A stretch of 64,000 bases of DNA from an uncultured Candidatus Rokubacteria bacterium (GCA_963747235.1 CAVVEU010000008.1:608001-672000); one strand, 5' to 3'; counted from the stretch's first letter, positions 7,782-62,461 are shown. The notes: generated from the letters alone by a model not told the origin. Program-made: numbers and translations.

Positions 7782-8757
7782 ATGTCCGTGATACATGAGC
7801 GTATCCACGACGAGACGGGGTCCATCCCGCGCGCGATCGCGCGCGGGGACGCCGGGTTTCCGTCGCGGCTCGCGGAGATTCCCGACGCGCCCGCCGCGCT
7901 TCACGTGCGCGGCACGCTCGTGGACGCGGACGCGCTCGCGGTCGCCATCGTGGGCTCCCGACGGGCGACGCCCTACGGCCTCGAGGTCGCCGAGACGCTC
8001 GCGGCGGACCTCGCCGCGCGCGGCGTCACCATCGTGAGCGGGCTCGCGCGCGGCATCGACAGCGCGGCCCATCGCGGCGCGCTCCGCGTCGGCGGGCGCA
8101 CCATCGCGGTGCTCGGCTCGGGCGTGGACGTGATCTATCCGCCCGAGAACCGGCGGCTCGCGGCGCGAGATCGCGGCGCGCGGCGCCCTGCTCTCCCAGT
8201 TCGCGCCGGGGACGCCGCCGCTGCCGCACAACTTCCCGATCCGCAACCAGGTGATCGCGGGGATATCGCTCGCGGTGGTGGTCGTCGAGGCGGCCGAGAA
8301 GAGCGGCTCGCTCATCACCGCGCGCCTCGCCGCCGAGCTCGGCCGCGAGGTGCTCGCGGTGCCGGGACGCATCACCGCGCCGGAGAGTCGCGGGGCCAAC
8401 CGGCTGATCCAGGACGGGGCGCACGTGGCGATGGGCTGGGAGGACGTGGTCGCGGTCCTGCCCGAGCGCTGGAAGGCCTGCGTGACCACTGACGGACGAG
8501 TTGGAACGGCAGGAGGCGCCGCAGTGGCAGGGCGAGGCGCAGCCGCAGGCGAGCCGAGCGAATACGAGAAAGAAGTTACGGTAGCGACCCGGAACATCCT
8601 CGGCATCCTCGGCGAGGATCCGATCGACATCGACCACGTGATCGAGCGCAGTGGGCTGGGCGCCGGGCGCGTGTCGGCCGCGCTGCTGGAGCTGGAGCTC
8701 GAGGGGCGGGTGCGGCAGATCGAGGGCAAGCGGTTCGTCCGGATCGGACGAGGATAG
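7782..8757 (+). CDS. dprA: DNA-processing protein DprA (apparent frameshift near 8165; contains a family A repeat in its linker)
   Basis: [40 protein letters not shown] and C-terminal w[11 protein letters not shown]; directly upstream of topA. Confidence 0.9.
8521..8585 (+). repeat. Family A repeat, diverged copy, in frame within dprA
   Basis: GCAGTGGCAGGGCGAGGCGCAGCCGCAGGCGAGCCGAGCGAATACGAGAAAGAAGTTACGGTAGC aligns with the 61644-61709 copy. Confidence 0.85.
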
Positions 8758-8768
8758 GAGACCGGCGG

Positions 8769-11027
<2,259 letters not shown>

Positions 11028-11049
11028 GGAGCCTCCCGGTTCATCCACG

Positions 11050-11922
11050 ATGGACGCGGCGGTCGGATCCTTCCTCGAATACCAGGCGGTCGAGCGTGGC
11101 GCGTCTCCCCATACCCTCCGGGGCTACACCGCCGATCTGACCGAGTTTTCCCGCTTCCTCGCCGCCGAGAAGATCGCGGGCTGGGAGACGGCGGATACGC
11201 GCGTGGTCCGGGCCTACCTGGTGTGGCTCCACAAGCGGAAGCTGGCCAAGGCCACCATCGCGCGCAAGCTGGCCGCGGTGCGGAGCTGCTTTCGCTTCCT
11301 CGGCCGCCGCGGCGCCATGGAGGTGAATCCGGCGCGCCAGGTGCGCGGCCCGCGCCTGGGCCGGCGGCTCCCGTCGTTCCTGCCGGTGGACGAGACCGCG
11401 GTGCTCTTGAGTCCCGAGCCGGAGCCGTCCCTGGCCGGCGCGCGCGATCGCGCGCTGCTCGAGCTGCTCTACGCGAGCGGGCTCCGGGTGGCCGAGGGCT
11501 GCGGCCTCGACGTGGACGACCTGGATGAGGACCGGCGCACCGTGCGCGTCCTCGGCAAGGGCAGCAAGGAGCGCGTGGTGCCGGTCGGCGAGTCCGCGCT
11601 GGAGGCCCTCGCGGCCTACCTGGCACTCCGCGGGCGCCGGCGCGGGCCGCTCTTCCTCAACCCGCGCGGCGGCCGGCTCACCACGCGGAGCGCGCTGCGC
11701 ATCGTGCGCGCCCGCGCGCGCCGGGCCGGGATCGCCCAGCGGGTGACGCCCCACACCCTCCGCCACAGCTTCGCCACGCACATGCTGGGGGCGGGCGCGG
11801 ATCTCCGGCTCATCCAGGAGCTGCTGGGCCACAGCCGCCTCTCCACCACCCAGCGCTACACCCACGTGAGCCCGGAGCACCTGATGCGCGTGTACGACGC
11901 CGCGCATCCGCGGGCGACCTGA
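11050..11922 (+). CDS. xerC: Tyrosine recombinase XerC
   Basis: [26 protein letters not shown] and LLGH...TTQRY catalytic set; topA-xerC-hslVU context. Confidence 0.9.
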
Positions 11923-11940
11923 GAGGACTCGGAGCTCGCC

Positions 11941-12489
11941 ATGACGTCGCCGACCGCCCCGTCGATCCACGCCACCACCGTGGTCTGCGTCCGGCACAAG
12001 GGCCGCGTGGCGGTGGCGGGCGATGGGCAGGTCACCTTCGGCCAGACCATCATGAAGGCGGGCGCGCGCAAGGTGCGCAAGATGCACCACGACCGCGTGC
12101 TCGCCGGCTTCGCGGGCGCGGCCGCCGACGCGTTCACGCTCTTCGCGCGCTTCGAGGCGAAGCTCGAGGAGCACCGGGGCAATCTCCCGCGCGCCGCCGT
12201 CGAGCTGGCCAAGGAGTGGCGCATGGACCGCGTGCTCCGGCGGCTCGAGGCGCTGCTGGCGGTGGCCGACGCGGAGACGAGCTTCATCGTGTCGGGCACC
12301 GGCGACGTGATCGAGCCCGACGACGGCCTGGTCGGGATCGGCTCGGGCGGGCCCTACGCCCTCGCCGCGGCGCGGGCGCTGCGGGCGCACTCCACGCTCG
12401 AGGCGCCGCAGATCGCGGAGGAGTCTCTCCGCATCGCGGCCGGCATCTGCGTCTACACGAACGATCAGATCACGGTGCTGAGCCTGTGA
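11941..12489 (+). CDS. hslV: ATP-dependent protease subunit HslV
   Basis: [21 protein letters not shown] and GSGG motifs. Confidence 0.95.
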
Positions 12490-13877
12490 CCGACCAGCCC
12501 GCTCCGCCGCTCGGCCAACCGCTCGGAACAAGCGGCCTCACGCCGGCCCAGATCACCGCCGAGCTCGACCGCTTCATCGTGGGCCAGGGCAAGGCCAAGC
12601 GCGCGGTCGCCATCGCGCTCCGCAACCGGTGGCGGCGGCAGAACCTGCCCGCCGAGCTGCGCGACGAGGTCGCGCCGAAGAACATCATCATGATCGGGCC
12701 CACCGGGGTCGGGAAGACCGAGATCGCCCGGCGCCTCGCCAAGCTCGCCCAGGCCCCGTTCCTCAAGGTGGAGGCGTCCAAGTACACCGAGGTGGGCTAC
12801 GTGGGCCGGGACGTCGAGTCCATGATCCGCGACCTGACCGAGCTGGGCGTGAGCATGGTCAAGGCGGAGATGGCGGCCGCGGTGCGCGAGCGGGCGGAGA
12901 CGCTGGCCGAGGAGCGGCTCCTCGACCTGCTGCTGCCCCGCCGCCCCGGCGAAGCCTACGTGAGCGGCACGCTCGAGGAGGTGTCGCCCGACGCCTCCCG
13001 CGATGCGACCCGGGACAAGCTCCGGGCCCAGCTCCGCTCCGGCAAGCTCGACGAGCGGCCCATCGAGATGGACGTGCAGCAGGCCGGGCCCATGCTGGAG
13101 GTCCTCCCGGGCCAGGGCATGGAGGAGATCGGGATCAACCTCAAGGACATGCTCTCGCACCTCATGCCCGGCCGCACGCGGCGGCGGCGGGTCAAGGTGG
13201 GGGAGGCGCGGCGGCTGCTGGCCCAGGAGGAAGCCCAGAAGCTGGTGGACATGGACGAGGCGGTGGGCCAGGCGGTCCGCCGGGTGGAGAACTCGGGCAT
13301 CATCTTCCTGGACGAGCTGGACAAGATCGCGGGCCGGGAGGGCGGCCGGGGCCCCGACGTGTCGCGGGAAGGGGTGCAGCGCGACCTCCTGCCGATCGTC
13401 GAGGGCTCGACGGTGACCACGAAATACGGCGCGGTCCGGACCGACCACATCCTGTTCATCGCGGCGGGGGCCTTCCACGTGGCCAAGCCGGCGGACCTGA
13501 TCCCGGAGCTGCAGGGGCGCTTCCCGATCCGGGTCGAGCTGGAGCCCTTGACGCGGCCGGATTTTATCCGCATTCTGAGCGAACCTCAGAACGCCCTGAT
13601 ACGGCAATATGTTGAGCTGCTGAGGACGGAAGGGGTGACGCTGCGCTTCACCACCGACGCGGTGGAGGCCATCGCCGAGATCGCGTTCACGGTGAACCAG
13701 CGGGCCGAGAACATCGGGGCCCGGCGCCTGTACACGGTGATGGAGCGGCTGCTGGAGGAGATCTCCTTCGACGCCCCCAACCTGGTCGGGCGGGAGCTCG
13801 TGATCGACGCGGAGTACGTGCACGCGCAGCTGGCCGACGTGGTGAAGGACGAGGATCTCTCCCGCTACATCTTATAA
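12486..13877 (+). CDS. hslU: ATP-dependent protease ATPase subunit HslU
   Basis: [32 protein letters not shown] and C-terminal LSRYIL. Confidence 0.96.
13548..13591 (+). promoter_or_regulatory. Candidate internal promoter TTGACG-N17-CATTCT inside hslU, overlapped by inverted repeat TTCTGAG-N5-CTCAGAA
   Basis: AT-rich patch 13548-13625 in an otherwise GC3-rich gene, ~300 nt upstream of argB. Confidence 0.5.
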
Positions 13878-13878
13878 A

Positions 13879-14766
13879 GTGAACGAGCGCATGATGCCGA
13901 TCCCGGAGCTGGTGCAGCGCGCCGAGCTGCTCATCGAGGCGCTGCCCTATATCCGTGCCTTCCAGGGCAAGACCCTCGTGATCAAGTACGGGGGGGCCGC
14001 CATGGAGCAGGCGGATCTCAAGGAGCAGTTCGCCAAGGACGTGCTCCTCCTCCGCCTCGTCGGCATCCGGCCGGTCATCGTGCACGGCGGTGGTCCCCAG
14101 ATCGGCGCCCTCATGAAGCGGCTCGGCAAGGAGCCGAAGTTCGTGGGCGGCATGCGCGTCACCGACGAGGAGACGGTCGAGATCGTCGAGATGGTGCTGG
14201 TCGGCAAGATCAACAAGGAGATCGTGGGCCTGATCAACCTGCACGGGGGCCGGGCGGTGGGGCTCTCCGGCAAGGACGCGAGCCTGCTGCGGGCCCACAA
14301 GCGGCTGCACAAGATGCCCGACGGGACCTCGGTGGACATCGGGCTGGTGGGCGAGGTGGAAGCGGTCAATCCCGAGCCGATCCGGCTGCTCGAGGAGAAC
14401 GGGTTCATCCCGGTGATCGCGCCGGTCGGGGTGGGGGCGGCGGGCGAGACCTACAACATCAACGCGGACCTGGTGGCGGGCGACGTGGCCGCCGCGCTCT
14501 TCGCGGAGAAGCTGATCCACCTCACGGACGTCACCGGCATCAACGGCGAGGACGGCCGCCTGATCTCGACGCTCACCAAGCGTGACGCGGAGCGGCTGAT
14601 CAAGGCGGGCGTGATCGACGGGGGCATGCTGCCCAAGGTGGAGTCCTCGCTGCGAGCCCTCGGCGGCGGCGCCCAGAAGGCGCACATCATCGACGGCCGC
14701 GTGCCCCACGCGATCCTGCTCGAGGTCCTCACCAAAGAAGGTATCGGGACCGAAATCGTCCTATGA
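13879..14766 (+). CDS. argB: Acetylglutamate kinase
   Basis: KYGG, VHGGGP, GMRVTD, YNINAD and GGMLPKV motifs. Confidence 0.95.
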   Translation: MNERMMPIPELVQRAELLIEALPYIRAFQGKTLVIKYGGAAMEQADLKEQFAKDVLLLRLVGIRPVIVHGGGPQIGALMKRLGKEPKFVGGMRVTDEETVEIVEMVLVGKINKEIVGLINLHGGRAVGLSGKDASLLRAHKRLHKMPDGTSVDIGLVGEVEAVNPEPIRLLEENGFIPVIAPVGVGAAGETYNINADLVAGDVAAALFAEKLIHLTDVTGINGEDGRLISTLTKRDAERLIKAGVIDGGMLPKVESSLRALGGGAQKAHIIDGRVPHAILLEVLTKEGIGTEIVL

Positions 14767-14773
14767 GGGAGCC

Positions 14774-15976
14774 ATGACGGATACCAAGACGCTGATCGAG
14801 TGGGCGGACAAGCACCTGATGTACACCGCCAAGCGCGCCCCGGTGGTGCTGGTGCGCGGCGACGGGGCGCGGGTGTGGGACAGCGACGGCAAGGAGTACC
14901 TCGACTTCACCGGCGGCATCGCGGTGACCGCGCTCGGGCACTCCCATCCCAAGGTGGTGGGGACGATGCGGGAGCAGGCGGCCACGCTGCTCCACGTGTC
15001 GAACCTCTTCTACATCCCGCAGCAGACCCAGCTCGCCAAGCTGCTCTGCGATCATTCGTTCGCCGACCGGGTGTTCTTCTCCAACTCGGGCGCGGAGGCC
15101 AACGAGACCGCGATCAAGCTCGCGCGGAAGTGGGCCAAGGAGCACGGGGCCAGCGACCGCGGGGACATCATCACGATGCGGGGCGGCTTCCACGGGCGGA
15201 CGCTGGCCACCGTGACCGCCACCGCGCAGGAGAAGTACCACCACGGGTTCGAGCCGCTGCCCGGCGGGTTCAAGTACGTGCCGTTCAACGACCTGCGCGC
15301 GGTGGAGCGGGCCATCGACAGCCACACCGCCGCGGTGATGGTCGAGCCGATCCAGGGCGAGGGCGGCGTCAACATCCCGGACGACGGCTACCTGCCCGGG
15401 CTGCGCAAGCTCTGCGACGAGGCGGGGATCCTGCTCGTGCTGGACGAGATCCAGACCGGCATGGGGCGCACCGGCCGGCTCTGGGGCTACGAGCACTCCG
15501 GCATCGAGCCCGACATCATGACGCTGGCCAAGGCGCTGGCCAACGGGGTGCCGATCGGGGCCACCCTCGCCACCGAGAGCGTGGCGTCCGCGTTCACGCC
15601 GGGCACCCACGGCTCCACCTTCGGCGGCAACCCGTTCGTCACCGCGGTGGGCCTGACCGTGTTCACGACGCTGATGGAGGAGCGGCTGCCCGAGCGCGCG
15701 GCCACCACCGGCCGCCTGCTGCGCGATCAGCTCGAGGCGGTGCGCGGCCGGCACCCGAAGGCGGCGACCGCGGTGCGGGGGCGCGGTCTGCTCGTGGGCA
15801 TGGACCTGGTGCCGCCGGTGGGCGAGGTCATCGGGGCCTGCCGCGAGCGCGGCCTGCTCGTGCTCAGCGCGGGCGACAATACGTTGCGGCTGGCTCCGCC
15901 TTTGATTACCGACGAGGCCACCGTGCGCCGCGCGGTCGAGATCATCGATCAGGTCCTGAGCGGCTTCGTGAAGTGA
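14774..15976 (+). CDS. argD: Acetylornithine aminotransferase
   Basis: [27 protein letters not shown] and PLP Lys in TLAKALANG. Confidence 0.93.
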
Positions 15977-22132: not shown

Positions 22133-22207
22133 GCGGGAATAGCTCAGTGGTAGAGCACAACCTTGCCAAGGTTGGGGTCGCGGGTTCGAATCCCGTTTCC
22201 CGCTCCA
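22133..22207 (+). tRNA. tRNA-Gly(GCC)
   Basis: GCGGGAA/TTCCCGC acceptor stem, anticodon loop TTGCCAA, GGTTCGAATCC T arm, encoded CCA. Confidence 0.97.
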
Positions 22208-22241
22208 TATAGCAGGCGGAGTAGTCGGCGGACAGTGCAAG

Positions 22242-22317
22242 GGCGGCGTAGCCAAGTGGCTAAGGCGGAGGTCTGCAAAACCTCTATTCAGCGGTTCGAA
22301 TCCGCTCGCCGCCTCCA
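22242..22317 (+). tRNA. tRNA-Cys(GCA)
   Basis: GGCGGCG/CGCCGCC acceptor stem, loop CTGCAAA, T arm GGTTCGAATCC, U73 discriminator, CCA. Confidence 0.96.
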
Positions 22318-22348
22318 CTAAGTTGGGGGCGGTCCAGCGGTGGGTTGG

Positions 22349-22437
22349 GCCGGGGTGGCGGAACTGGGAGACGCAGCGAACTTAAAATTCGCTGGTCCGT
22401 AAGGGCCGTGGGGGTTCGATTCCCTCCCTCGGCACCA
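22349..22437 (+). tRNA. tRNA-Leu(TAA)
   Basis: GCCGGGG/CCTCGGC acceptor stem, loop CTTAAAA, long variable arm, GGTTCGATTCC, CCA. Confidence 0.95.
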
Positions 22438-22929: not shown

Positions 22930-23005
22930 ATCGCCGCCCGCTTACCGGCGCCACGAATGCCCGCAGCGCCTGGGTATCGGTTTAAGTCCTTAGGCTCTAT
23001 CTAAC

Positions 23006-23052
23006 GCGGGGGCCCATGAAATGGCCCCCGCACTCCCCCAGGCCGCGGACAC
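23006..23052 (+). repeat. Family B hairpin repeat, intergenic, bracketed by 9-bp direct repeats GTTTAAGTC (22980-22988 and 23055-23063)
   Basis: GCGGGGGCCCATGAAATGGCCCCCGCACTCCCCCAGGCCGCGGACAC matches the copies at 55101 and 59769. Confidence 0.85.
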
Positions 23053-23128
23053 TCGTTTAAGTCGCGCCCGCGTACCGGCCGCTCCCGCGTCTCTGGCTCG
23101 TTCCTGCCGTGGTAGACTTACCGTCCGT

Positions 23129-47062: not shown

Positions 47063-47479
47063 GCGAGCGGAAGCTCTTCACCCCGGACGAGGTCAATCGT
47101 CTGATCCCGCGGCTGACCGAGCTGATGGAGACCGCCATCGAGCGCCATGGGCAGGCCCTGGCGCTGCAGGAGCGCCTCCGCGACGATCGCGCGCGGGTGT
47201 CGGCCTCCGGAGGCGAGCCACGCGACACGATGGACTGGAAGGCGCGCGCGGAGCGCCTCGACGGGCTCGGCATCGAGGTGCGCCAGGTCCTGCAGGACGT
47301 GCAGGCCATGGGCGGCGTCGTGAAGGATCTCGAGACGGGCCTGGTGGACTTTCCCGGGCCGCGGGCCCGCCGAGCCGGGCGGGCCGGTCGTGAATCTCTG
47401 CTGGAAGCTCGGGGAGGACGCGGTGCGGTTCTGGCACGGGATGGACGAGGGCTTCGCCCAGCGGAAACCGCTCCCATGA
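47059..47479 (+). CDS. DUF2203 family protein (apparent frameshift near 47355-47390)
   Basis: FT..E.N.L.P, VKD...GLVDFP, then shifted LCWKLGE..V.FWH...EGF..RKPL. Confidence 0.75.
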
Positions 47480-47559
47480 TTGGCGAGGCGCAGCCGAAGG
47501 CGAGCCGAGCGGATACATGATTGGCGAGGCGCAGCCGAAGGCGAGCCGAGCGGATACAT
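47475..47559 (+). repeat. Two exact tandem 41-bp family A units plus CAT
   Basis: CATGATTGGCGAGGCGCAGCCGAAGGCGAGCCGAGCGGATA at 47475-47515 and 47516-47556. Confidence 0.95.
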
Positions 47560-48302
47560 CGACCTACCAGGCCGTCCTCTTCGATCTGTTCGACACCCTG
47601 GTGCTCTTCCACCGGGAGCGCCTGCCGGAGATCCACGTCAACGGGCGGACCGTCCGGAGCACCGCCGGCTACCTGCACGCCGCGTTCCGGCCTTTCGCGC
47701 CGCACGTGGAGCTGCCCGCCTTCATGGACGCGCTCTTCTGGAGCTGGCAGGAGGCCGAGCGCATTCGCGCAGAGGCCCATCGAGAAGTCACGGCCCCGGA
47801 GCGGTTCGGGATGCTGTTCGGGCGCCTCGAGCTCGAGCCGTCCGTGGAGGCGCGCGATCTGCTGCTCGCCACCCACATGCGCGAGCTGTCCAAGGTGGTC
47901 GAGTGCCCCGAGCACCACGCCCCGCTGCTCAAGGCGCTCCGCGAGCGGTACCGGCTCGCGGTGGTCTCGAACTTCGACTACTCGCCCACCTGCCTGGCCA
48001 TCCTCGAGCGCGAGGGCATCGCCGATCTCTTCGAGACCATCGTGATCTCGGACGAGGTGGGCTGGCGCAAGCCCAAGCCGGTCATCTTCGAGACCGCGCT
48101 CGACCGGATGAAGTCGCTCCGCCCCGCCGACGCCCTCTTCGTGGGGGACCGTGCCGACATCGACGTGATCGGCGCCCGGGGGGTGGGCATGCCGACCGCC
48201 TGGATCAACCGGGAGGCCGAGCGCCTCCCCACCGACATTCAACCGCCCGACTTCGAGATCCGCGACCTGGCGGACCTCCGGGCGATTCTTCGCATCCCGT
48301 AG
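47517..48302 (+). CDS. HAD family hydrolase; first 14 aa are encoded by the repeat
   Basis: LFDLFDTL, VSNF, RKP..IF and FVGD...D..GA motifs. Confidence 0.88.
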   Translation: MIGEAQPKASRADTSTYQAVLFDLFDTLVLFHRERLPEIHVNGRTVRSTAGYLHAAFRPFAPHVELPAFMDALFWSWQEAERIRAEAHREVTAPERFGMLFGRLELEPSVEARDLLLATHMRELSKVVECPEHHAPLLKALRERYRLAVVSNFDYSPTCLAILEREGIADLFETIVISDEVGWRKPKPVIFETALDRMKSLRPADALFVGDRADIDVIGARGVGMPTAWINREAERLPTDIQPPDFEIRDLADLRAILRIP

Positions 48303-49286: not shown

Positions 49287-49293
49287 CAGGGCC

Positions 49294-49344
49294 GCAGGGC
49301 GAGGCGCAGCCGAAGGCGAGCCGAGCGGATAAATAAGGAAGCTT
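49294..49344 (+). repeat. Family A repeat just after the trxB stop
   Basis: GCAGGGCGAGGCGCAGCCGAAGGCGAGCCGAGCGGATAAATAAGGAAGCT. Confidence 0.92.
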
Positions 49345-49348
49345 CCCG

Positions 49349-49661
49349 CTATTTGCCCGCCGCGGCACCCGGCACTGGCTCCGGGAGCCGCGGTCCGTCC
49401 CGTCCGGCCGCCTCGAGGCATCCGAGTATCCGGTCGCGCTCGTTCAGCGCCACGTAGGTGAACCGGATCCGTCCGTCGGTATCCACCCGATCGAGCTTGA
49501 CGTCGCGCAGCCCCTTCGACGCACTGCCGCCAGCGTCGGTTGGCGAGTTCCTGCTCCGGCGTGTCCCGGAAGTACTCGCAGCCCGTCGCGGTCGCCGCGA
49601 CCGCGAGGAGTGCTGCCGCGGCTGCTGGCGAGCCGAGAACGTCGCGCACCCCGATGCGCAT
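49349..49661 (-). CDS. Small hypothetical lipoprotein (~103 aa; apparent +1 frameshift in a G run near 49512)
   Basis: MRIG...AATATGC lipobox; corrected frame continues LRDVKLDRVDTDGRIRFTY...CLE...AGK-stop. Confidence 0.55.
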
Positions 49662-49663
49662 GA

Positions 49664-49715
49664 TACCGGACGCTTCTTTACTTATCCGTTCGGCTTGCCT
49701 TCGGCTCACCTCACC
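49664..49715 (-). repeat. Degenerate family A copy on the minus strand containing the mscL stop codon
   Basis: Reverse complement reads GGTGAGGTGAGCCGAAGGCAAGCCGAACGGATAAGTAAAGAAGCGTCCGGTA. Confidence 0.75.
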
Positions 49716-50140
49716 GAGCGAAGCCTCAGCAGGTCTCGGATCTCGCCCAGCAGCTTGACCTCGGCGGTGGGCTCGGGGGGGGCGGCGGGCGCGGCCTCTT
49801 CCTGGCGCCGGAGCCGGTTGAGCATCTTCACGACGAAGAACAGGGCCCCCGAGACGATCAGGAAGGAGATGACCGCGTTGATCAGGAGGCCCACGGCCAG
49901 GACCACCGCGCCCCCGTCGCGGGCCGCCTTCACCGACGCGTAGGTGGCGCCGCTCGGATTGCGCAGCACCATGTACAGGTTGCTGAAGTCGGGGCTGCCG
50001 ATGATGCCCGAGATCAGCGGCATCAGGACGTCGTTGACCAGCGAGGTGACCACCGTCCCGAAGGCCGCGCCGATGATGATGCCGACGGCCATGTCCATCA
50101 TGTTGCCCTTGATCGCGAACTCCTTGAACTCCTTCAGCAT
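49706..50140 (-). CDS. mscL: Large-conductance mechanosensitive channel
   Basis: EFKEFAIKGN..DMAVGIIIGAAF and LL.EIRDLL motifs. Confidence 0.96.
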   Translation of the reverse strand: MLKEFKEFAIKGNMMDMAVGIIIGAAFGTVVTSLVNDVLMPLISGIIGSPDFSNLYMVLRNPSGATYASVKAARDGGAVVLAVGLLINAVISFLIVSGALFFVVKMLNRLRRQEEAAPAAPPEPTAEVKLLGEIRDLLRLRSVR

Positions 50141-53427: not shown

Positions 53428-53442
53428 GCGCCCGCTCTCGCT

Positions 53443-54675
53443 GTGACCGCGCTGTCGCAAGTCCTCCGCAAGATCGACGCGGACGAGGTCGTGGAGCTGA
53501 CCCGCTCGCTCGTCCGCATCCCCAGCGTCTATCGCCCCGGCGACCCCGAAGCGACCGAGGCCCGCGTGGCCGCCTTCGTCGAGGCCTGGATGCGGCGCGA
53601 GGGCTTCCAGGTGGAGGTGCAGCAGGTCGCCCCCGGCCGTCCGAACATCATCGGCTGGCTCGGCGAGAAGCGCCCCGGGGGCAAGAGCCTGCTGCTCGAG
53701 GGGCACACCGACGTGGTGACCGAGGGCGATCCGGCCGAGTGGTCGCACCCGCCGTTCGGCGCCGACATGGTGGACGGTCGCATCTACGGCCGCGGCACCG
53801 CCGACATGAAGAGCGGGCTGGCCGCGGCCATGGTCGCGGCCGCCGCGTTCAAGCGGGCCGGCGTCGCGCTGCGGGGCAAGCTGGTCGTCGGCGCCCTGGT
53901 GGACGAGGAGGACGGCATGATCGGCGTCCGCCACCTCTGCGGCACCGCGGTGGGCCGCGAGCTGGACGCCGCCATCATCTGCGAGCCGGAGGAGAACGAG
54001 CTCTGCCTCGAGCAGCGCGGCGTGGTCTGGGCGCGCTTCCGCGTGCGCGGCAAGATGGCGCACGGGGCCATGCCCCAGGCGGGCGTGAATCCGATCACCG
54101 GCCTCGGGCGACTGCTGGCCGCGGCGCCCGGCCTCGAGCGACGGCTGCGGAAGGCCTGCGAGAAGAGCCGCTATCTCAAGCCGCCGACCGTGACGCCGAC
54201 CATCATCCAGGGGCCGCCGCCCGGCGTGGGCGTGCCGCAATCGAACGTCATCCCCGCGCTGGCCGAGACCACGTTCGACATCCGGCTGACCCCGGGCATC
54301 GGCGCGGACGGCATCCGCGCCGAGCTGGAGGCGATCTGCCGCGACGCGGCGGCCGCCCAGCCCGGGATCAAGGTGGAGTGGGAGCCGGTCAACGCCTTCC
54401 GCCTGGCCACCAAGGTGGACCGCTCCGAGGCCCTGGTGGCGGCGATGGTCCGCGGGGTGAAGCAGGCGACGCGCCGGGCCGCGAAGTACGGCGGAGTGCC
54501 GGGCTCGACGGATGGCACGATCCTCCGGATGGAGCTGGGCATTCCGATCGTCACCTGTGGGCCCGGGGACCGGCTGATTCCCCACCAGGTCGACGAGTTC
54601 GTCCGAGCCGAAGAAGTGGTCGAGGCGGCGAAGATTTACGCCGCATCGGCTCTGAACTATCTCGAAGCCGAGTGA
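53443..54675 (+). CDS. M20 family metallopeptidase (ArgE/DapE-like)
   Basis: GHTDVV, GRG.ADMK, VDEE, CEP, AHGA.P and H..DE motifs. Confidence 0.88.
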   Translation: MTALSQVLRKIDADEVVELTRSLVRIPSVYRPGDPEATEARVAAFVEAWMRREGFQVEVQQVAPGRPNIIGWLGEKRPGGKSLLLEGHTDVVTEGDPAEWSHPPFGADMVDGRIYGRGTADMKSGLAAAMVAAAAFKRAGVALRGKLVVGALVDEEDGMIGVRHLCGTAVGRELDAAIICEPEENELCLEQRGVVWARFRVRGKMAHGAMPQAGVNPITGLGRLLAAAPGLERRLRKACEKSRYLKPPTVTPTIIQGPPPGVGVPQSNVIPALAETTFDIRLTPGIGADGIRAELEAICRDAAAAQPGIKVEWEPVNAFRLATKVDRSEALVAAMVRGVKQATRRAAKYGGVPGSTDGTILRMELGIPIVTCGPGDRLIPHQVDEFVRAEEVVEAAKIYAASALNYLEAE

Positions 54676-55929
54676 CCCCCGCCGGCAACCCGAGGCTCCG
54701 GGCCCTCGAGGCCTTCCCGGTCGAGCAGCAAGGGCAGCGCTGCGTGGCCCTGCGAGATCCCGCCGGCTTCACCGATCAGATCGCCGTGCTCCCGCCGCCC
54801 CTGCTGGATCTGGTGTCGCTCTTCGATGGGGAGCATTCGATCGAGGAGATCCGGGAGATCCTGCAGCGCCGACACGGCAAGGCGCCCACCCTCAAGCGCA
54901 TCACCGACGTCGTCGAGCGATTCGATGCCGCGGGGTTCCTCGACAGCGAGCGGTTCCGGCAGCGGCGCCGGGCGCTCGAGGACGCCTTCCGGCAGAACCC
55001 GGTGCGCCCCGCCGCTCACGCGGGCGGCGCCTACGCGGGCGACGCGGCGGAGCTCCGGGCGCAGATCGACGGGTTCTTCTCCGGCCCTGACGGGCCGGAT
55101 TGCGAGAGCCCAGAAATGGCCCCCGCACTCCCCCAGTCCGCGGCCAACCGATCCAGTCTTTCCGCCTTGGTTGCTCCGCATATAGATTTTCACCGCGGGG
55201 GCTCGACCTACGCGTGGGCGTACCGCGAGATTCTCGAGCGGTCGGACGCGGACCTCTACGTCGTGCTGGGCACCTGTCACGCGGGCATGCCGGATCCGTT
55301 CGCGGTGACCCTCAAGCCCTACGAGACGCCGCTCGGCCCCGTCCCGGTGGACCGCGAGTTCTACGAGGCGCTCGACCGGCGGGCCGGGCAGGACCTGCTG
55401 GCCTCCGAGCCGGCGCACCGCGCGGAGCACTCGATCGAGTTCCAGGCCGTGATGCTCCAGCACATCGTGGGCGCCCCGCCGCCCGTTCGCCATCCTGCCC
55501 GTGCTCGCCTCGTACCTGCACGAATCGCTGGGGCGCGGCGGCGATCCCGAGGCGGATCCGCGCATCCCGCGCTTCCTGGACGCGCTGCGGGAGACGATGG
55601 CGGCGTCCTCGCGCCGGGTGTGCCTGGTCGCGGGCGTGGACCTGGCCCACGTGGGCCCCCGGTTCGGCGATCGCGAGCCCAATAGCGCCGCGTCGCTCGC
55701 GCGGGTCGAGCGGGACGATCGCGCCATGCTGGAGTCGGTGGTGGGGGTGGACCCGCGCGGCTTCTACGCGGGGATCGCCGCCGACCACGACGCCCGCCGC
55801 ATCTGCGGCCTCTCGCCGATCTACACGCTGCTGCGGCTCCTGCCGGAGGCCCCGGGCCGCCTGGTGCGCTACACGCAGTGGCCGGACCCGCAGGGCGCGG
55901 TGACCTTCTGCGCGGTGACCTTCCCGTGA
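54672..55929 (+). CDS. MEMO1 / AmmeMemoRadiSam protein B family with N-terminal extension (apparent frameshift near 55470; contains a family B repeat)
   Basis: RPAAHAG..Y, APHID, LGTCH, EHSIEFQ, DLAHVGPRFGD and ICG motifs. Confidence 0.85.
55101..55150 (+). repeat. Family B repeat in frame in the MEMO gene (CESPEMAPALPQSAANR)
   Basis: TGCGAGAGCCCAGAAATGGCCCCCGCACTCCCCCAGTCCGCGGCCAACCG. Confidence 0.88.
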
Positions 55930-56394
55930 GCCCGGGCCCCACGCCCGATCCCTCGACCTGGACCCTGCCGAAGCTGCGCATCGATCGCGACGGCCTGTGG
56001 TTCCACGACGACGCCGAGGTCACGCACCCGGGCATCATCGCCAACCTGCGCGAGAACCTCCGGGTGGACGAGCGCGGTCACCATCTGCAGATCGGGCCCG
56101 CGCGGGTGCCGGTGGAGGTGGAGGACGCGCCGTACGTCGTCGAGCGCGTGGAGGCGCAGGGTGAGGGGCTCACGGCCACGCTCAACGACCTGACGCCGGG
56201 AGCCGGTGGCGCTCGACACGCTCCGGGTGGACGAGCGGGGCATCCCGCGCTGCCGGGTGAAGGAGGGCCGCTTCGCCGCGCGGCTGAGCCGGGCCGCGAC
56301 CTATCAGCTCCTCCAGCACGTGCAGCCCGACGAGGGGGCCGGCCGGTCCAGCCTCGTGCTGGGCGGGCGCCGCTACCCGGTGCCGGGCCTCTAG
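55926..56394 (+). CDS. DUF1285-like protein (apparent frameshift near 56197)
   Basis: RIDRDG.WFH, V.VEDAP.V, then shifted C.VK.GRF.ARL.R..YQL. Confidence 0.65.
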
Positions 56395-56966
56395 GGAGCG
56401 GGCTCCGGCCCGGGCGGGTAGGCGGAGAGCCCGCGCAGCCCCGCCTCGTCGCCCGCCTCGATCAGCCGGTGCAGCGGGCCGTTCTCCCGCCAGGCCTGGC
56501 AGGTGTTGACGAACCACGGGGCGCCCTCGGCGGGGCGCTCGTAATCCGCGAAGGCGACGCCGGCCCCCTGCCGCACCGCCGGGGCCACCGCGTGGATCAA
56601 CGCGGTGAAGTGGGCGCAGCCGCGCTGCCGGCCGAAGCGCTCGTTGATCTCCCGCGTGAAGCCGCGCGAGATGGACAGGCCCACGAGCTGCTGGAGGGGC
56701 GGCAGGGCGTCCGGGCAGATCGTGTACGGATGCGAGGCCATCTCGCTGCGCGCCTCCGTGATGACCAGATCGGGATGGCGCACGCGCAGGCCGAGCCGCA
56801 TGTCGTGGATCACGCGCGGCGGCTCGGCGCCGAACCAGCGTGGGTTGTCGCGCGGCCGCTCGTCCACGAGCGTCGCGGTGATGTCGAGCTCGTGCTCGCC
56901 CGCCCGCGCGACCTCGATGCGGATGGTCCTCACGTGCACCGGCGGGATCTTCGTCTTCTCGGTCAT
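56391..56966 (-). CDS. DUF2889 family protein
   Basis: H.RTI, IHDM.L, HPY..C, GL.I..GF, GC.H and NTC..W motifs. Confidence 0.75.
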   Translation of the reverse strand: MTEKTKIPPVHVRTIRIEVARAGEHELDITATLVDERPRDNPRWFGAEPPRVIHDMRLGLRVRHPDLVITEARSEMASHPYTICPDALPPLQQLVGLSISRGFTREINERFGRQRGCAHFTALIHAVAPAVRQGAGVAFADYERPAEGAPWFVNTCQAWRENGPLHRLIEAGDEAGLRGLSAYPPGPEPAP

Positions 56967-57754
56967 GAAGCGGCCGCGACCTCCTTGAGGGCTTGGAGCA
57001 AGTCGGAATGGATCGGGCCGTTCGAGGCCGCGATGGTGGGCGCCGCCAGGTCGAGCGGGGCCCCGTGCACGGCGGTCACGGTGCCGCCCGCCTCCCGGAT
57101 CAGCAGCGCGCCCGCCGCGATGTCCCAGGCGCCCAGGTGCTGCTCCCAGTAGCCGTCGAGCCGCCCGGCCGCGACCGCGGCGAGCCCGAGCGCGGCGGAG
57201 CCGAGGCTGCGCACGCTGCGGCAGCGCTGGATGAGGGCGGCGTGCTCGGCGAGATTGTTGCGCGGGGCGGCCAGCAGGTCGTTCGGGTAACTCGTGCCGA
57301 GCAGGCTCAGGCCGAGGGTGGGCGTCGCGGAGACGCGCAGGGGCGCGCCGTTCAGCGTGGCGCCGCGGCCGCGCTCGGCCACGAAGCACTCGTCGCGACT
57401 GGGATCGTAGAGGACGCCGACGGCCAGATCGCCGTCCAGCTCGAGCGCGATCGACACGCAGTAGATCGGCAGCCCGTGGGCGTAGTTGGTGGTGCCGTCG
57501 AGCGGGTCCACGATCCAGCGATGCGGCTCGGTCCCGCTCCGCGCGCCGCTCTCCTCGGCGAGGACCGCGTGCCCCGGGAACCGGGCGTGAATGGCGTCGA
57601 GGATGATGGTCTCGGCGCCGCGGTCCATCTCGGTGACGAGATTCGTGGGGCTGCCCTTGTAGCTGATGTCGTGTCGCGCGCCGAAGCCGGATCGGAGGAA
57701 CGCGCCGGCCTGGAGAGCCGCCTCCACGGCGACGTCGCGGAAGGAATCGTTCAC
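56963..57754 (-). CDS. suhB: Inositol monophosphatase family (SuhB)
   Basis: LAEE, WIVDPLDGTTNY, R.LGSAAL and WDIAAG motifs; GTG lies 8 nt after TGgTATCCT. Confidence 0.88.
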   Translation of the reverse strand: MNDSFRDVAVEAALQAGAFLRSGFGARHDISYKGSPTNLVTEMDRGAETIILDAIHARFPGHAVLAEESGARSGTEPHRWIVDPLDGTTNYAHGLPIYCVSIALELDGDLAVGVLYDPSRDECFVAERGRGATLNGAPLRVSATPTLGLSLLGTSYPNDLLAAPRNNLAEHAALIQRCRSVRSLGSAALGLAAVAAGRLDGYWEQHLGAWDIAAGALLIREAGGTVTAVHGAPLDLAAPTIAASNGPIHSDLLQALKEVAAAS

Positions 57755-57780
57755 GGGGATCGAGGATACCACGGCGCCGC

Positions 57781-57809
57781 TTGACAACCCGGCGACCCTC
57801 TCGCAGCAT
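57781..57809 (+). promoter_or_regulatory. Promoter TTGACA-N17-CAGCAT, 7 nt before the panE ATG
   Basis: Consensus -35 at 57781-57786 with 17-nt spacer. Confidence 0.55.
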
Positions 57810-57816
57810 GGCGCCC

Positions 57817-58750
57817 ATGCGCATCGTGGTGATGGGATCGGGCGGGACCGGTGGATTCTTCGGCGCGAAGCTGGCGCGGGCGGGGGAGGACGTGACGTTC
57901 GTGGCGCGTGGCGCGCACCTGGCCGCGCTGCGCGCGAACGGCATGCGGATCAAGTCCGCGGTCGAAGGGGAATGGGTCGTGCGGGCGCCCGCGGTGGAGC
58001 GCCTGGACGGGCTGCCGCCCGCCGACCTCGTGCTGTTCTGCGTGAAGTCCTTCGACACGGAGGAGGCCGCCGCGCTGATCCGGCCCGTGGTGGGTCCCGA
58101 CACCGGTGTGCTCTCGATCCAGAACGGAGTGGACAACGAGGAGAAGCTCGCGCGGGTGCTGGGCGCCGGCCACGTGCTGGGGGGCGCGGTCCGGGTCTTC
58201 GCCACCATCGAGGCGCCGGGCGTCATCACGCACACCTTCGGGGGGCATCTCGCCTTCGGCGAGATGGACGGGCGCGAGACCGCGCGCGCCCAGGCCCTGC
58301 GGGCCGCGTGCCAGAAGGCCTCCATTCCCGGTCGAGCTCGTGGGCGACGTGACCCGCACCCTCTGGGACAAGTACGTGTTCCTGACCACGCACGCCGGGA
58401 TGACCGCGCTGACCCGCTGCTCGGCCGGGGTGCTGCGGGCGGTTCCGGAGGTGCGGGAGGTCTACCGGCGCATCGCGACCGAGATCATCGCGGTCGGACG
58501 GGCCGCCGGGGTGAAGCTCGACGACGCGATGCTGGAGCAGGGGTTCAAGTTCCTCGACACGGTGGCCCCGAACGCGTTCTCGTCGCTCCACTACGACCTG
58601 ACTCACGGCAAGCGGCTCGAGCTGGAGGCCCTCCACGGGCACGTGGTGCGGCTCGCCGAGCGCCACCACGTGCCCGCGCCCACCGTCTTCGCGATCTACG
58701 CGGCGCTGCTCCCGTACCGGGACGGCGCGCCCGCCACTCCCGCGCGGTAG
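57817..58750 (+). CDS. panE: 2-dehydropantoate 2-reductase (apparent frameshift near 58330)
   Basis: GSGGTGG, VKS, QNG, W.K and SSL..D...G.RLE motifs. Confidence 0.85.
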
Positions 58751-58811
58751 CTGCGGCGGTCGCGCCCGCGCCCGGGCTGGCGCCGGCGCGCGGCTGGTCT
58801 ATACTGACTCG

Positions 58812-60581
58812 GTGTCGTCGCTCAGACGTCTCCTGCCGTATCTGGACCGCTACCGGCTCCGCTACCTCGGGGGCGCGGCCTGTCTGCTCCTCGCCACCGC
58901 GTTCTCGCTGAGCATCCCGTGGACGGTGAAGAGCGCGGTGGACGCGCTCGAGCGCGACGGCACCGCCGCCCGCATCGGTCCCTACGTCCTCCTGATCCTG
59001 GCCCTGGCCGTGGCGCACGGCGCCGCGCGCCTGGGCTCACGCTTCGCCATGCTGGGGGCCGGCCAGTGGGTGGAGCACGACATCCGCGCCGATCTGTACG
59101 CGCGGCTCCTCGTGCTGCCGCCCGCGTTCTATCACCGGCATCGGACCGGCGATCTGATGTCGCGCGTGTCCAACGACATCTCCACCCTGCGGGCGCTGGC
59201 GGGCTTCGGCACCGTGATGCTCATCGGCACCACGCTCGCCTTCGGGGGCGCGCTGACCGCCATGTGGCTCATCGACCCGTGGCTCACCCTGTTCGCGATG
59301 GCGCCGTTCCCCGCGCTCGTGATCATCGCCAAGCGCTTTCACCACGACACGGAGGTGCGCTCCACGGCCGTGCAGGAGCAGCTCGGCGCCCTCTCCGCCA
59401 AGGTCCAGGAGAACCTGACCGGCATGCCGGTGGTGCGCGCGTACACGATGGAGGCGCGCGAGGTGGCCGAGTTCGAGCGCCTCAACGCGGAGTACCTCAC
59501 GCGCAACATGGCCCTGGCGCGGATCCAGTCGGTGTCCTGGCCGCTGATGGGGCTGGTGTCGGGCATGGGCGTGCTGATCGTGATGTGGCTCGGCGGCAAG
59601 GCGGTGGTGGACGGCCGCATCTCGCTCGGCTCCTTCGTGGCCTTCAACGGCTATCTCACCCAGCTCGCCTGGCCCACCATCGCGCTGGGCTGGACGCTGG
59701 CGAGCATCCAGCGCGGCCTGGCCGCCATGGCGCGGGTGACCGAGGTGCTCGACGAGCGGGCTATTGAATGCGGGGGCCCAGAAATGGCCCCCGCACTCCC
59801 CCAGTCGGCGGACAACCGGGAACTCCTGCCTCGCGGCGCGGTCGAGTTCAGGAACCTCACGTTCTCCTACGACGGCGACCGGGGTCTCGTGCTGCGCGAT
59901 GTGTCGTTCGCGGTGCCGGCGGGCGCGGTGGTGGCGGTGGTGGGCCCGACGGGCAGCGGCAAGTCCACGCTGGGCATGCTGTTATGTCGTCTCTACGAGC
60001 CGCCGCGCGGCACGGTGTGGGTCGGGGGGCGGGACGTGCTCGACCTCCCGCTGGGCCGCCTCCGGCGGTCGGTGGGCTACGTGCCGCAGGAGTCGTTTCT
60101 CTTCTCCCGCCCGCTGCGCGACAACGTGCGGCTGGCCGACGAGAGCGCGGACGCGGAGCGCCTGGAGGCGGTGGCCCGGACCGCGGGGTTGACGGACGAT
60201 CTGGGCGCGCTGCCGCGCGGCTGGGACACGGTGGTCGGCGAGCGCGGCCTCACCCTCTCGGGCGGCCAGCGGCAGCGGGTGGCGCTGGCACGCGCGCTGG
60301 TGGCGGATCCGCCCTTCCTCGTGCTGGACGACGTGCTGGCCTCGGTGGACGCGGCCAAGGAGTGGGAGATCACCCGCGCGCTCCGGGGAGCGGCCAGCGG
60401 CCGCACCACGCTGCTGATGACCCATCGCCTCAAGGCGGCCGCCGAGGCCGACGCGATCGTGGTGCTCGACGAGGGCCGCGTGGTCGAGCAGGGCCGCCAC
60501 GCCGATCTCCTCGCGGCCGGCGGCCTCTACGCCCGCCTCTGGCGTGTCCAGCAACTGGAGGACGAGCTCGCCAGTGCCTGA
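58812..60581 (+). CDS. ABC exporter subunit 1 (fused TMD-NBD), with a family B repeat in the linker
   Basis: TGDLMSR, GPTGSGKST, LSGGQRQR, non-canonical Walker B VLDD; TATACT 6 nt upstream of GTG. Confidence 0.92.
   Translation: MSSLRRLLPYLDRYRLRYLGGAACLLLATAFSLSIPWTVKSAVDALERDGTAARIGPYVLLILALAVAHGAARLGSRFAMLGAGQWVEHDIRADLYARLLVLPPAFYHRHRTGDLMSRVSNDISTLRALAGFGTVMLIGTTLAFGGALTAMWLIDPWLTLFAMAPFPALVIIAKRFHHDTEVRSTAVQEQLGALSAKVQENLTGMPVVRAYTMEAREVAEFERLNAEYLTRNMALARIQSVSWPLMGLVSGMGVLIVMWLGGKAVVDGRISLGSFVAFNGYLTQLAWPTIALGWTLASIQRGLAAMARVTEVLDERAIECGGPEMAPALPQSADNRELLPRGAVEFRNLTFSYDGDRGLVLRDVSFAVPAGAVVAVVGPTGSGKSTLGMLLCRLYEPPRGTVWVGGRDVLDLPLGRLRRSVGYVPQESFLFSRPLRDNVRLADESADAERLEAVARTAGLTDDLGALPRGWDTVVGERGLTLSGGQRQRVALARALVADPPFLVLDDVLASVDAAKEWEITRALRGAASGRTTLLMTHRLKAAAEADAIVVLDEGRVVEQGRHADLLAAGGLYARLWRVQQLEDELASA
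59769..59819 (+). repeat. Family B repeat in frame (CGGPEMAPALPQSADNR)
   Basis: TGCGGGGGCCCAGAAATGGCCCCCGCACTCCCCCAGTCGGCGGACAACCGG. Confidence 0.92.
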
Positions 60582-62461
60582 GCCAGTGCGTGAGCCCGAG
60601 CAGGAAGACGAGGTTCTCGGCAAGGCGTACGACGCGCGCCTGATGGGCCGCCTGTGGGCGTTCACGCGCCCACACCTCCGGCTCGTGCTGGCGACCTGCG
60701 CCCTCTTCCCGGCGGTGGCCCTGCTGGAGCTGTCGCAGCCCTACCTGATCAAGATCGCGATCGACGATCACATCCTCCGTCGCGACTGGGCGGGCCTCGG
60801 GGGCGTCGCGGCGCTGTTCCTCGTGGTCCTCGTCGTCCTCTACGCGCTGCGGGCGACGCAGGCCTATCTCACCCAGCTCACCGGCCAGCGCGTCATCCAC
60901 GATCTGCGCGCGGCGCTGTTCGCGCATCTCCAGCGCCAGGATGCGCGCTTCTACGACCGGAGCCCGGTCGGGCGGCTCATGACCCGGGTCCTGAACGACG
61001 GCGAGGCGATCCAGGAGCTGTTCACGAGCGGCGCCGTGGCGCTCCTGGGCGACGTCGTCGTCCTCACCGGAGTCGTCGTGATCATGCTCGGAATGAACTG
61101 GAAGCTGGCCCTCGTCACGTTCGCGCTGGTGCCCCTGCTGGTGCTGGCCGCGGCGTACTTCCGGGTGCGCGCGCGGGACAGCTATCGGGTGGTCCGCACC
61201 CGCCTGGCCAGGATGAACGGGTTCCTGCAGGAGTCGCTCCAGGGCATGAGCGTGATCCAGCTCTTCGCGCGCGAGGCCCGGGAGCGGGAGACGTTCGCGC
61301 AGCTCTCCGGCGCGCTGCGCGCCGGCCAGTTCCGCTCGACGTTCTACGACGCTTCCCTCTACGCGACGGTGGAGGCCCTGGGCTCCGCCGCGGTGGCCCT
61401 GCTGCTCTGGTACGGGGGCGGGCAGGTGGTGACCGGGGCGCTCACCTTCGGCGGCCTCGTGGCCTTCCTCGAGTACACCGGCCGCTTTTTCCTCCCCATC
61501 CGGGATCTGGGCGCCAAGTACACGGTCATGCAGGCGGCCATGGTCTCGGCCGAGCGCATCTTCGCCCTGCTCGACACCCACCCCTCCATCACCTCGCCGG
61601 TCGGCGGAAACGGTGGATCGGGCAGGCAGTTGCAGGGCGAGGCGCAGTTGCAGGGCGAGGCGCAGCCGAAGGCGAGCCGAGCGGATACAAGAAAAGAAGC
61701 TCCGGTAGCAACGCCCCCAACCTCCCGCCATAGAATTCCGCAACGTCTGGTTCGCGTACGAAGACGAGCAGTGGGTCCTCCGCGACTGCTCGTTCACGCT
61801 CGCGGCGGGCGAGCGTGTCGCCCTGGTCGGCCCCACCGGCGAGGGCAAGACCACGATCGCCCGCCTCATGATCCGGGCCTACGACGTGACCCGCGGCCGG
61901 GTCCTGGTGGACGGCGTGGACGTGCGCGAGTGGGATCTGAAGACGCTGCGCCGGCACGTGGGCCTGGTGCCGCAGGAGGTGTTCCTCTTCTCCGGCACCG
62001 TCGAGGACAACCTGCGCCTGGCCGGCGACGGCGCGGCGGATCGCCCGACGATCGATCGCGCGCTCGAAGCCGCGAACGCGGAGCGCTTCGTGGCGGCGCT
62101 GCCGCGCGGGCTGGGCGAGGAGCTGCGCGAGCGCGGCGTCAATCTCTCGCAGGGACAGCGCCAGCTGCTGGCCATCGCCCGCGCCATCATCTATAATCCA
62201 CGCGTTCTCGCGCTGGACGAGGCGACGTCCAGCATCGATCCCGAAGCGGAGGCGCAGGTGCGGATCGGTCTCGCGCGGCTGCTGGAGGGACGGACGAGCC
62301 TCGTCATCGCGCATCGGCTGTCCACGATCCAGCGGGCGGATCGCATTCTCGTGCTGCACCGCGGAGAGATCCGGGAGGCGGGCGCGCACGCGGAGCTGCT
62401 CGCGCAGGGCGGGCTCTACTCGCGGCTGTACGAGCTCCAGTTCGGCGTGGGGCGGACATGA
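60574..62461 (+). CDS. ABC exporter subunit 2 (fused TMD-NBD), with a family A repeat in the linker; frameshift between 61709 and 61730
   Basis: GKAYD.RL, PVGRLMTR, GPTGEGKTT, LSQGQRQL, LDEATS and IAHRLST motifs. Confidence 0.88.
61626..61709 (+). repeat. Family A repeat with an internal 18-bp tandem duplication
   Basis: (GCAGTTGCAGGGCGAGGC)x2 followed by GCAGCCGAAGGCGAGCCGAGCGGATACAAGAAAAGAAGCTCCGGTAGC. Confidence 0.92.

Follow-up and report, generated by a model that had tools for sequence, protein, structure and literature searches.

What are the short hairpin sequences that recur in a 64,000-nucleotide stretch of a Rokubacteria genome, and how might some of them have come to lie inside protein-coding genes? 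The stretch (hereafter the window; C8:608001-672000 of the assembly G000) belongs to a metagenome-assembled genome (MAG) of the Rokubacteria/Methylomirabilota, which comprises 5.57 Mb in 42 contigs at 71% GC and is 88% complete. It contains two families of such sequences, A and B, with copies both between and within genes. We consider it probable (roughly 0.78) that A and B are non-autonomous hairpin repeats similar to repetitive extragenic palindromic (REP) sequences, with intragenic copies that behave like Rickettsia palindromic elements (RPEs), and that they reside in one genus-level clade of the Rokubacteriales and a few sister genera.

Family A is recognised by a 34-nt core (GGCGAGGCGCAGCCGAAGGCGAGCCGAGCGGATA) that recurs in the window with at most three mismatches at positions 8531, 47482, 47523, 49298 and 61654 (five occurrences versus none in 100 shuffles), and family B by a 24-mer (GAAATGGCCCCCGCACTCCCCCAG) that is found exactly at 23018, 55113 and 59781 and in none of 100 shuffles. 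With a profile search, two additions emerged: at 49657-49730, a diverged A copy on the minus strand (E 1.5e-8), and at 61617-61647, a duplicate that is only partial. The nine copies listed in an initial annotation of the window are thereby recovered at their places. Given a genome total of 99, only about 1.1 copies would be expected per 64 kb; with nine, or about eight times the density of the genome, the window is a repeat hotspot.

Four of these copies are inserted in frame into genes, all on the plus strand. A long form of A (8506..8599, core 8531-8564) forms part of the linker between the Rossmann-like and C-terminal domains of DprA. In a MEMO-family protein, a B copy made up of the hairpin and its 3' module, with two mismatches in the stem, is read as CESPEMAPALPQSAANR (55098..55161). 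Another B copy is read as AIECGGPEMAPALPQSADNREL in the linker that joins the membrane and ATPase domains of an ABC exporter (ABC1; 59742..59824), and the equivalent linker of a second exporter (ABC2) holds a long form of A read as QLQGEAQLQGEAQPKASRADTRKEAPVATP (61617..61719, core 61654-61687), which carries an 18-nt partial duplication of its own 5' part. The peptides CGGPEMAPALPQSADNR in ABC1, QGEAQPKASRADT in ABC2 and CESPEMAPALPQSAANR in MEMO are present in the translations, as is the DprA peptide.

How do the same genes look in other genomes? We compared the four in-gene copies with orthologous loci from 40 relatives. Both anchors of ABC1 were present at 27 of 30 loci, and all 27 are in frame: the linker contains B in forward orientation in G000 and G004, B in reverse orientation (WGSAGAISGPP) in nine genomes (G020, G013, G001, G003, G009, G010, G019, G017 and G007), and no repeat at the remaining 16 loci, where it measures 54-69 nt. 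For MEMO, 26 of 30 loci had both anchors and again every one (26/26) is in frame. Here the linker is occupied by forward B in G000, G019 and, in degraded form, G012, by reverse B in G001, and by an A-like reverse sequence (YPVASPSAAAP) with tandem repeats in G013, G015, G020 and G005; 18 loci have a repeat-free linker of 42-72 nt. The DprA frame is kept at 29 of 30 loci; A is found in the linkers of G000, G014, G018, G001, G016 and G005, with decayed copies in G010, G009 and G017, and the linker spans 132 nt in G000 versus 78-96 nt at 15 repeat-free loci. In ABC2, five genomes (G000, G020, G014, G013 and G005) hold A in the linker and 24 do not, among them G011, with a linker of 54 nt and an ATPase domain that is 94% identical. 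The claim that four copies reside in genes as extra peptide is thus borne out by in-frame inserts and by empty sites in the orthologues of relatives, the translation itself being deduced from the frames that have been kept.

ABC2 of G000 is the sole out-of-frame locus among the 29 scored (28 in frame). It owes this to an extra base on the plus strand at 61723, just past a C run at the repeat, which puts the ATPase domain out of frame and is absent from two X15 contigs. A second extra base, at 55473 (plus strand), frameshifts MEMO and is missing from independent contigs of X1 and X16. Further 1-nt frameshifts affect DprA (~8166) and the DUF2203-like gene (~47340) of G000, and independent contigs are one base shorter also at 56195 and 58327. 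Since the bases at 55473 and 61723 are absent from independent contigs and their removal restores both frames, each points to an assembly error or a strain-private change; the same probably holds for the frameshifts of G000 in general, whose orthologues in relatives are intact.

Is the conserved entity the DNA or the peptide? The same frame does recur in independent genes, namely CGGPEMAPALPQ in ABC1 and MEMO and WGSAGAISGPPH in ABC1, MEMO, SPOR, MutL and ABC-F proteins, and one might therefore think of a protein linker motif, a peptide module maintained by selection, rather than of a DNA repeat. We regard this as highly improbable. Most copies are non-coding, conservation reaches into non-coding flanks, and one DNA sequence serves in several frames and in either orientation. 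Forward A is used in three frames (GEAQPKASRAD, GRGAAEGEPSGY and RRAERI), forward B in two and reverse B in two; the DprA linker of G016 alone contains two A copies in two different frames, and that of G005 a duplicated one. The earlier suggestion that the DNA is the conserved unit stands, with A appearing as GEAQPKASRAD in ABC2 and a HAD hydrolase and as GRGAAEGEPS in DprA.

Genic copies are not confined to the window. Elsewhere in G000, at least six more copies are bordered on either side by domain homology, as judged by Pfam matches. A was found within the CO_deh_flav_C match of a CoxM-like protein, between TPP_enzyme_N and TPP_enzyme_C domains, within a Glyoxalase_3 match and, in reverse, within DUF748, and B in the central loop of a transporter of the MFS family and between Epimerase and SQS_PSY domains. 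B also occurs in a linker preceding a SPOR domain and in the interdomain region of MutL, and repeat-derived tails form the C-termini of RuvC, an ABC-F protein, RidA, riboflavin synthase and an aminotransferase; one further in-gene case in G000 has no Pfam match. Altogether, of the 99 copies, about ten lie internally and have homology on either side, and about seven lie at termini. Repeat-derived peptide is seen in three genes of recombination or repair, DprA (window 8506-8599), MutL and RuvC (C20:13116 and C24:751197).

The intergenic sites indicate that the repeats are gained and lost between close relatives. The junction upstream of the HAD hydrolase gene contains two short A units in tandem on the plus strand. 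Unit 1 (ATGA plus 37 nt; 47476..47516, core 47482-47515) supplies in its TGA the stop codon of the upstream DUF2203-like gene, and its own ATG opens a frame of 14 codons only; unit 2 (47517..47562, core 47523-47556) begins with the ATG at 47517 that starts the hydrolase. As had been proposed, a repeat copy thus provides a start codon, in that ATG 47517 is the only in-frame start of this gene and adjoins the repeat unit. The start codon derives from the host ATGA overlap, and the repeat adds 14 N-terminal residues, the N-terminus reading MIGEAQPKASRADTS. The junction is empty, leaving the bare overlap CC(A/G)TGACCTACC, in L051, L053, L057, G013 and G007; L052, with 94% identical DNA, has one 42-nt unit after the ATGA, and G000 has that unit together with a 41-nt tandem copy. 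Further downstream, a long form of A (49289..49362, plus strand, core 49298-49331) starts 3 nt past the trxB stop codon, where L057 has a truncated A copy, and the diverged minus-strand copy (49657..49730) lies between mscL and a lipoprotein gene. The stop codon TGA of mscL falls inside the A core of this copy (GGTGAGGTGAGCC), in agreement with the view that one copy contains a stop.

The reverse situation is found at an operon junction at 14753..14773 (plus strand). Here, G000 displays an empty A site (CTATGAGGGAGCCATG), which is filled in G013, in G020 and, with two copies, in the more distant G007; the filled sites are bounded by TGAG...TGAG, with the upstream stop codon inside the A core. 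Loss of A in G000 would be the simplest reading of these sequences. The fabF junction holds A in G000, G014, G011 (two cores) and G020 and lacks it in G013 and G015. Family B is similarly variable. The full B unit that stands between co-directional genes in the window (22970..23066, plus strand) corresponds to one copy in G020, two in G007 and a decayed copy in G013. At C24:430726, G000 and G011 have B and three other genomes an empty site, and at C8:277562 there are none, one (truncated), one or two copies, depending on the genome. At C24:431570, G000 has two reverse B copies, G013 and G015 decayed reverse copies, G014 a forward copy and G011 none. In G020, a further reverse B with a 22-nt host duplication at its flanks has entered the junction of ABC1 and ABC2, where the window shows a 12-nt tandem duplication (see below). 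In sum, B is found in opposite orientations across species at three orthologous sites (the linkers of ABC1 and MEMO and one intergenic spacer), and the MEMO linker is occupied by both families across species. Empty orthologous sites, open frames and the base-resolved polymorphism at the HAD junction all argue for the earlier idea of non-autonomous, RPE-like hairpin repeats in linkers and termini.

Could all of this have arisen during assembly or binning of the MAG? Several genes of G000 do contain 1-nt indels, and short-read assemblies of relatives break at the repeats. Nevertheless, A and B are both present in 20 of 20 independent assemblies of the same genus, the repeats also turn up in contigs from four public runs that belong to separate studies, and an artefactual origin accordingly appears to us the most far-fetched of the explanations considered here. 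Contigs from RNA libraries include both repeats, one of them spanning the MEMO linker; the depth peaks over repeats in public runs pool contigs from many loci and organisms, and we do not take them as evidence of expression. Short-read contigs of relatives terminate at B copies in G011:C275, G020:C88, G011:C681 and G014:C231. Such ends imply that the repeats fragment the MAGs of the genus and that copy numbers in these assemblies are underestimated.

Profile searches of G000 yielded 50 hits to A and 49 to B; matching of the cores, from exact to fuzzy, gave 13 to 41 copies of A and 21 to 68 of B, depending on the mismatches allowed. A genome-wide search therefore finds further copies, as the initial annotation had anticipated, albeit about 50 and 49 in 5.57 Mb rather than the hundreds per genome that it had extrapolated from the window. 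Outside the genus, but within its family, two of four other genera contain both A and B. One genus from a different family gives 14 hits to A, and overall A is found with many hits in three other genera. A collection of viral contigs contained no exact match to either core.

For gene context, we used the hits at E<=1e-5 (45 of A and 45 of B) and a crude caller based on codon statistics that was built for this analysis (5245 genes, 81% coding). It breaks up frameshifted genes, such that the MEMO and ABC2 copies were scored as lying in spacers, and the in-gene counts are minima. Most copies are intergenic. A occurs in 21 tandem, six divergent and five convergent spacers, at gene edges in five cases and deep in genes in eight; B occupies 32 tandem and six convergent spacers and lies deep in genes in seven cases. 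None of the 38 intergenic B copies is in a divergent spacer, as compared to 16% of the spacers in the genome. With this caller, both families show the preference of REPs for co-directional and convergent spacers. Relative to genes, A points in the same direction in 30 cases and in the opposite direction in four, and many of its copies are found 0-60 nt past a stop codon or ahead of a start codon; B shows 21 copies in the same and 18 in the opposite direction.

The anatomy of the two families is distinct. A consists of a strongly conserved core of 34-36 nt, preceded by a weaker 5' part (gCAGTgGCag); together with a purine-rich 3' tail present in one subfamily (CAAGAAAAGAAGCTCCGGTAGC), this makes a long form that measures about 80 nt. 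An imperfect hairpin results when the core folds, with eight pairs and a GAA loop. Among 59 unique sequences from G000 and fetched loci, 51 have G-C and eight have C-G at the pair 14-31, all of them canonical, and the pair 10-35 is C-G in 50, G-C in five, T-A in three and T-G in one, with none non-canonical. The hairpin of A thus has two covarying pairs; since these variants could represent subfamilies, the independent events are few. Tandem units of A have periods of 41, 44 and 45 nt and flanks that differ between sites. B measures about 50-95 nt and is built from a perfect 9-bp GC stem (GCGGGGGCC, a 7-nt loop and GGCCCCCGC) followed by ACTCCCCCAG and GCGGACAnnCG, and many copies have an additional 5' module (GCGGACAaCCGTtTAGTTCTTCAAGCTCT); tandem B has a period of about 72 nt. 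The motif GCGGACAnnCG, which stands as a direct motif at the end of B, is enriched in the vicinity of B, 45 of its 137 genomic copies being located within 150 nt of a B hairpin. Several other interpretations were tried and rejected. The spacing of a candidate sigma-54 promoter in the flank of A (GCAGTGGCAG) is unsuitable, only one or two copies show an outer stem that would close the long form of A, and B has no motif fitting an integron attC-like site or an IS91/helitron-like end. Nor does B resemble an intrinsic terminator, as it has no orientation preference and no U-tract after the stem in either orientation.

Might A and B be primarily functional RNA elements? Conceivably, both are cis-acting and kept by selection, A as an mRNA hairpin, intercistronic or 5', whose purine-rich tail is ribosome-binding-like, and B as a 3' stabiliser or terminator, and the coding copies are mere by-products. 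Such a role would account for the strand bias of A, its proximity to stop and start codons, the covariation in its hairpin and the exclusion of B from divergent spacers, and it would fit with cores that are about 85-98% identical between species whose proteins are about 83-94% identical. On the other hand, close relatives have empty sites at which no other element takes the place of the repeat, B is tolerated in either orientation and is not followed by a U-tract, and copies in coding sequence and tandem arrays are unexpected of regulators. There is also no match to an Rfam family: a scan of the window at gathering thresholds returned three tRNAs only, and when one copy of each family was scanned permissively, A had no hit and B a chance-level one to Yfr1 (17.2 bits versus a cut-off of 38, E 0.22). 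We consider a mainly regulatory nature possible but doubtful.

If A and B are instead mobile, which enzyme moves them? In classical REP systems, a REP-associated tyrosine transposase (RAYT) mobilises the repeats in trans. A single-copy, RAYT-like Y1 gene (PF01797) is indeed present in 12 of 20 genomes of the genus, and also in the genera g5 and g9, which hold A; the A and B hairpins are of REP size, and some A copies have a 3' tail (GGGGTCAGGGTT) resembling the start of a third family, C. It is family C (GGGGTCAGGTCTTGAATTACGACATTTCC), however, that flanks the Y1 gene as perfect inverted repeats, of 29 nt in L239 (1327-1355 and 2334-2362), whose RAYT-like ORF has 297 aa, and of 39 nt in L241 (1355-1393 and 2322-2360). 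G000 contains 13 copies of C with at most two mismatches and 52 with at most six, mostly arranged as inverted doublets about 55 nt apart, like those of REP doublet forming hairpins (REPINs); examples outside the window are C3:46353/46408 and C40:291939/291995. From its sequence arrangement, family C looks like the REPIN/RAYT (or 'TIRYT') system of the genus. The tetranucleotide that precedes A, 4 nt from the stem, is mostly GTGG and only in few copies GTAG; no GTAG/CGTC tetranucleotide abutting the stem emerges as a consensus for A, and none is found beside the stem of B. Moreover, the genus g10 has the gene in five of eight genomes but a match to A in one genome and to B in none, and G023 holds A and B, with no Y1 gene found there. 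Mobilisation of A or B by this transposase is hence unlikely, and the lead to a REP/RAYT system given by the initial annotation does not hold for these two families.

Family C copies are often found right after stop codons. Four A copies of G000 (C14:97944, C24:541157, C24:552003 and C40:545974) are followed by AAAGGGGTCAGGGTT, which is like the first 9-10 nt of family C; judged by its sequence, this stretch may also be ribosome-binding-like, ahead of the next start codon.

Several of our results weigh against reading A and B as REP-like repeats with RPE-like genic copies. No A or B copy was detected at E<=1 within about 1.5 kb of the Y1 gene in 12 RAYT loci. Profile searches of G000, with the reservation that the MAG is 88% complete, gave no match to Y1_Tnp (PF01797), OrfB_IS605 (PF01385), IS110 (PF01548) or DDE_Tnp_1 (PF01609), and alignments of 39 A and 44 B copies revealed no terminal inverted repeats. 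The direct repeats at the flanks are variable (ATGA, 4 nt; TGAG, 4 nt; (C/G)AGAAC, 5-6 nt; the 22-nt host duplication), unlike those of a classical transposase; as sequences, they would fit gain and loss mediated by microhomology at least as well as a transposase stagger. The strand bias of A could reflect a function at the RNA level instead of mere tolerance, and the gene-context counts depend on a crude in-house caller that miscounts copies in frameshifted genes. Finally, we infer translation of the extra peptide from preserved reading frames. Signs of a parent insertion sequence (IS) were likewise not encountered: the profile searches of G000 gave no paired partial hits 1-2 kb apart, and the genes between nearby B copies (C24:286.5-288.7 kb, C24:430.7-431.7 kb and C8:95.1-98.1 kb) are all housekeeping genes, with no transposase among them.

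How do A and B relate to known systems? [quoted passage not shown] According to the same source, RPEs are short palindromic repeats that are found both between genes and in frame at tolerant sites of unrelated housekeeping genes, where the frame is preserved and the host protein acquires a peptide, with several families in one genome; in these respects A and B resemble them. RPE hosts are AT-rich, obligate intracellular Alphaproteobacteria, whereas the host phylum of A and B is free-living, inhabits soil and, here, has 71% GC. The units also differ in length (37-95 nt versus about 100-150 bp for RPEs), the intragenic share of A and B is lower (roughly 10-18 of 99), and the occupation of one linker by different families or orientations, as seen here, does not feature in the RPE passages of PMC10969869. 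RPEs are therefore an analogue by behaviour; with host phylum and base composition being different, kinship in sequence is not expected.

REPs, in turn, have been reported to lie wholly within open reading frames in several species, many in genes of replication and repair, to supply stop codons with their ends and to prefer unidirectional and convergent spacers, and the same account describes genes for tyrosine transposases that have long inverted repeats on their flanks (Di Nocera et al., 2013; passages of PMC3733652). A and B share with them the imperfect palindromes of 20-40 nt, the tens of copies mostly in co-directional or convergent spacers, the ends that supply stops, the intragenic copies in repair genes (here DprA, MutL and RuvC) and the tandem or clustered copies. 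In contrast to REPs and REPINs, they have no GTAG/CGTC tag by the stem and form no inverted doublets, and the RAYT is flanked by C. With MITEs such as ERIC, Correia and QMITE, as outlined in parts of PMC10969869, A and B have in common a non-autonomous, structured nature, a mostly intergenic location, variation in size and copy number and occasional in-frame fusions; unlike MITEs, they are GC-rich rather than AT-rich and have neither terminal inverted repeats nor a target duplication of fixed length. A parent IS with matching ends was not found in the 88%-complete MAG. Because A and B lack the flanking RAYT, the tag, the inverted ends and the fixed duplication, we file them as REP-like with RPE-like behaviour and not as members of these groups. 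As intragenic REPs have already been described in several phyla (passages of PMC3733652 and PMC10969869), the phenomenon is not new in kind; it is the host group that is new, and in those portions of the literature on Rokubacteria that we consulted we found no description of genomic repeats in the phylum.

How might such repeats spread and persist? As the comparisons show, A and B are gained, lost, duplicated in tandem and allowed to decay between close relatives, and copies are kept where an insert does little harm. For A, these are mainly operon junctions, with a stop or start codon nearby and the repeat on the strand that is transcribed; for B, they are 3' and convergent spacers, whichever way the repeat points. 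A smaller part is retained in protein linkers, loops and termini, where a GC-rich unit that is open in the frames used can be read through as extra peptide. In dispersal to new sites, the single-stranded hairpin might be the recognised feature, the candidate agents being an enzyme acting in trans or template switching at microhomology that is stimulated by the hairpin. Local amplification and loss could proceed by slipped-strand events between short flanking direct repeats, and sites that are already occupied might attract more copies, leading to linkers with different families or orientations in different species. A more specific proposal is that hairpins are re-targeted to the same few sites, either by structure-directed integration or by inversion or replacement in place, with an existing hairpin serving as the landing pad and an agent that is neither a RAYT nor a classical transposase. 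We put this forward tentatively, as a minority view. If true, re-targeting would keep alternative peptides constantly available for the linkers of conserved proteins.

The Rokubacteria, abundant and uncultured inhabitants of soil, are known solely through metagenome assemblies, and at least three families of short hairpin repeats occur in their genomes. These repeats break short-read assemblies and add peptides to proteins, which matters to annotators, and they may serve as strain-level markers. They extend selfish DNA of the Rickettsia type, read as protein, to a free-living, GC-rich phylum, and this occurrence weakens the idea that such DNA is peculiar to intracellular genomes that have undergone reduction. 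The fact that the same linkers are occupied repeatedly, together with the missing connection of A and B to the resident RAYT, offers a concrete handle on how REP-like sequences spread.

Two further features of the window deserve mention. Three tRNA genes are clustered at 22133-22434, about 540 nt upstream of the intergenic B copy. At the ABC1 stop and ABC2 start codons there is a 12-nt tandem duplication (CCAGTGCCTGAG / CCAGTGCGTGAG; 60558-60581), and one X1 contig is without 12 nt at 60570, within this duplication.

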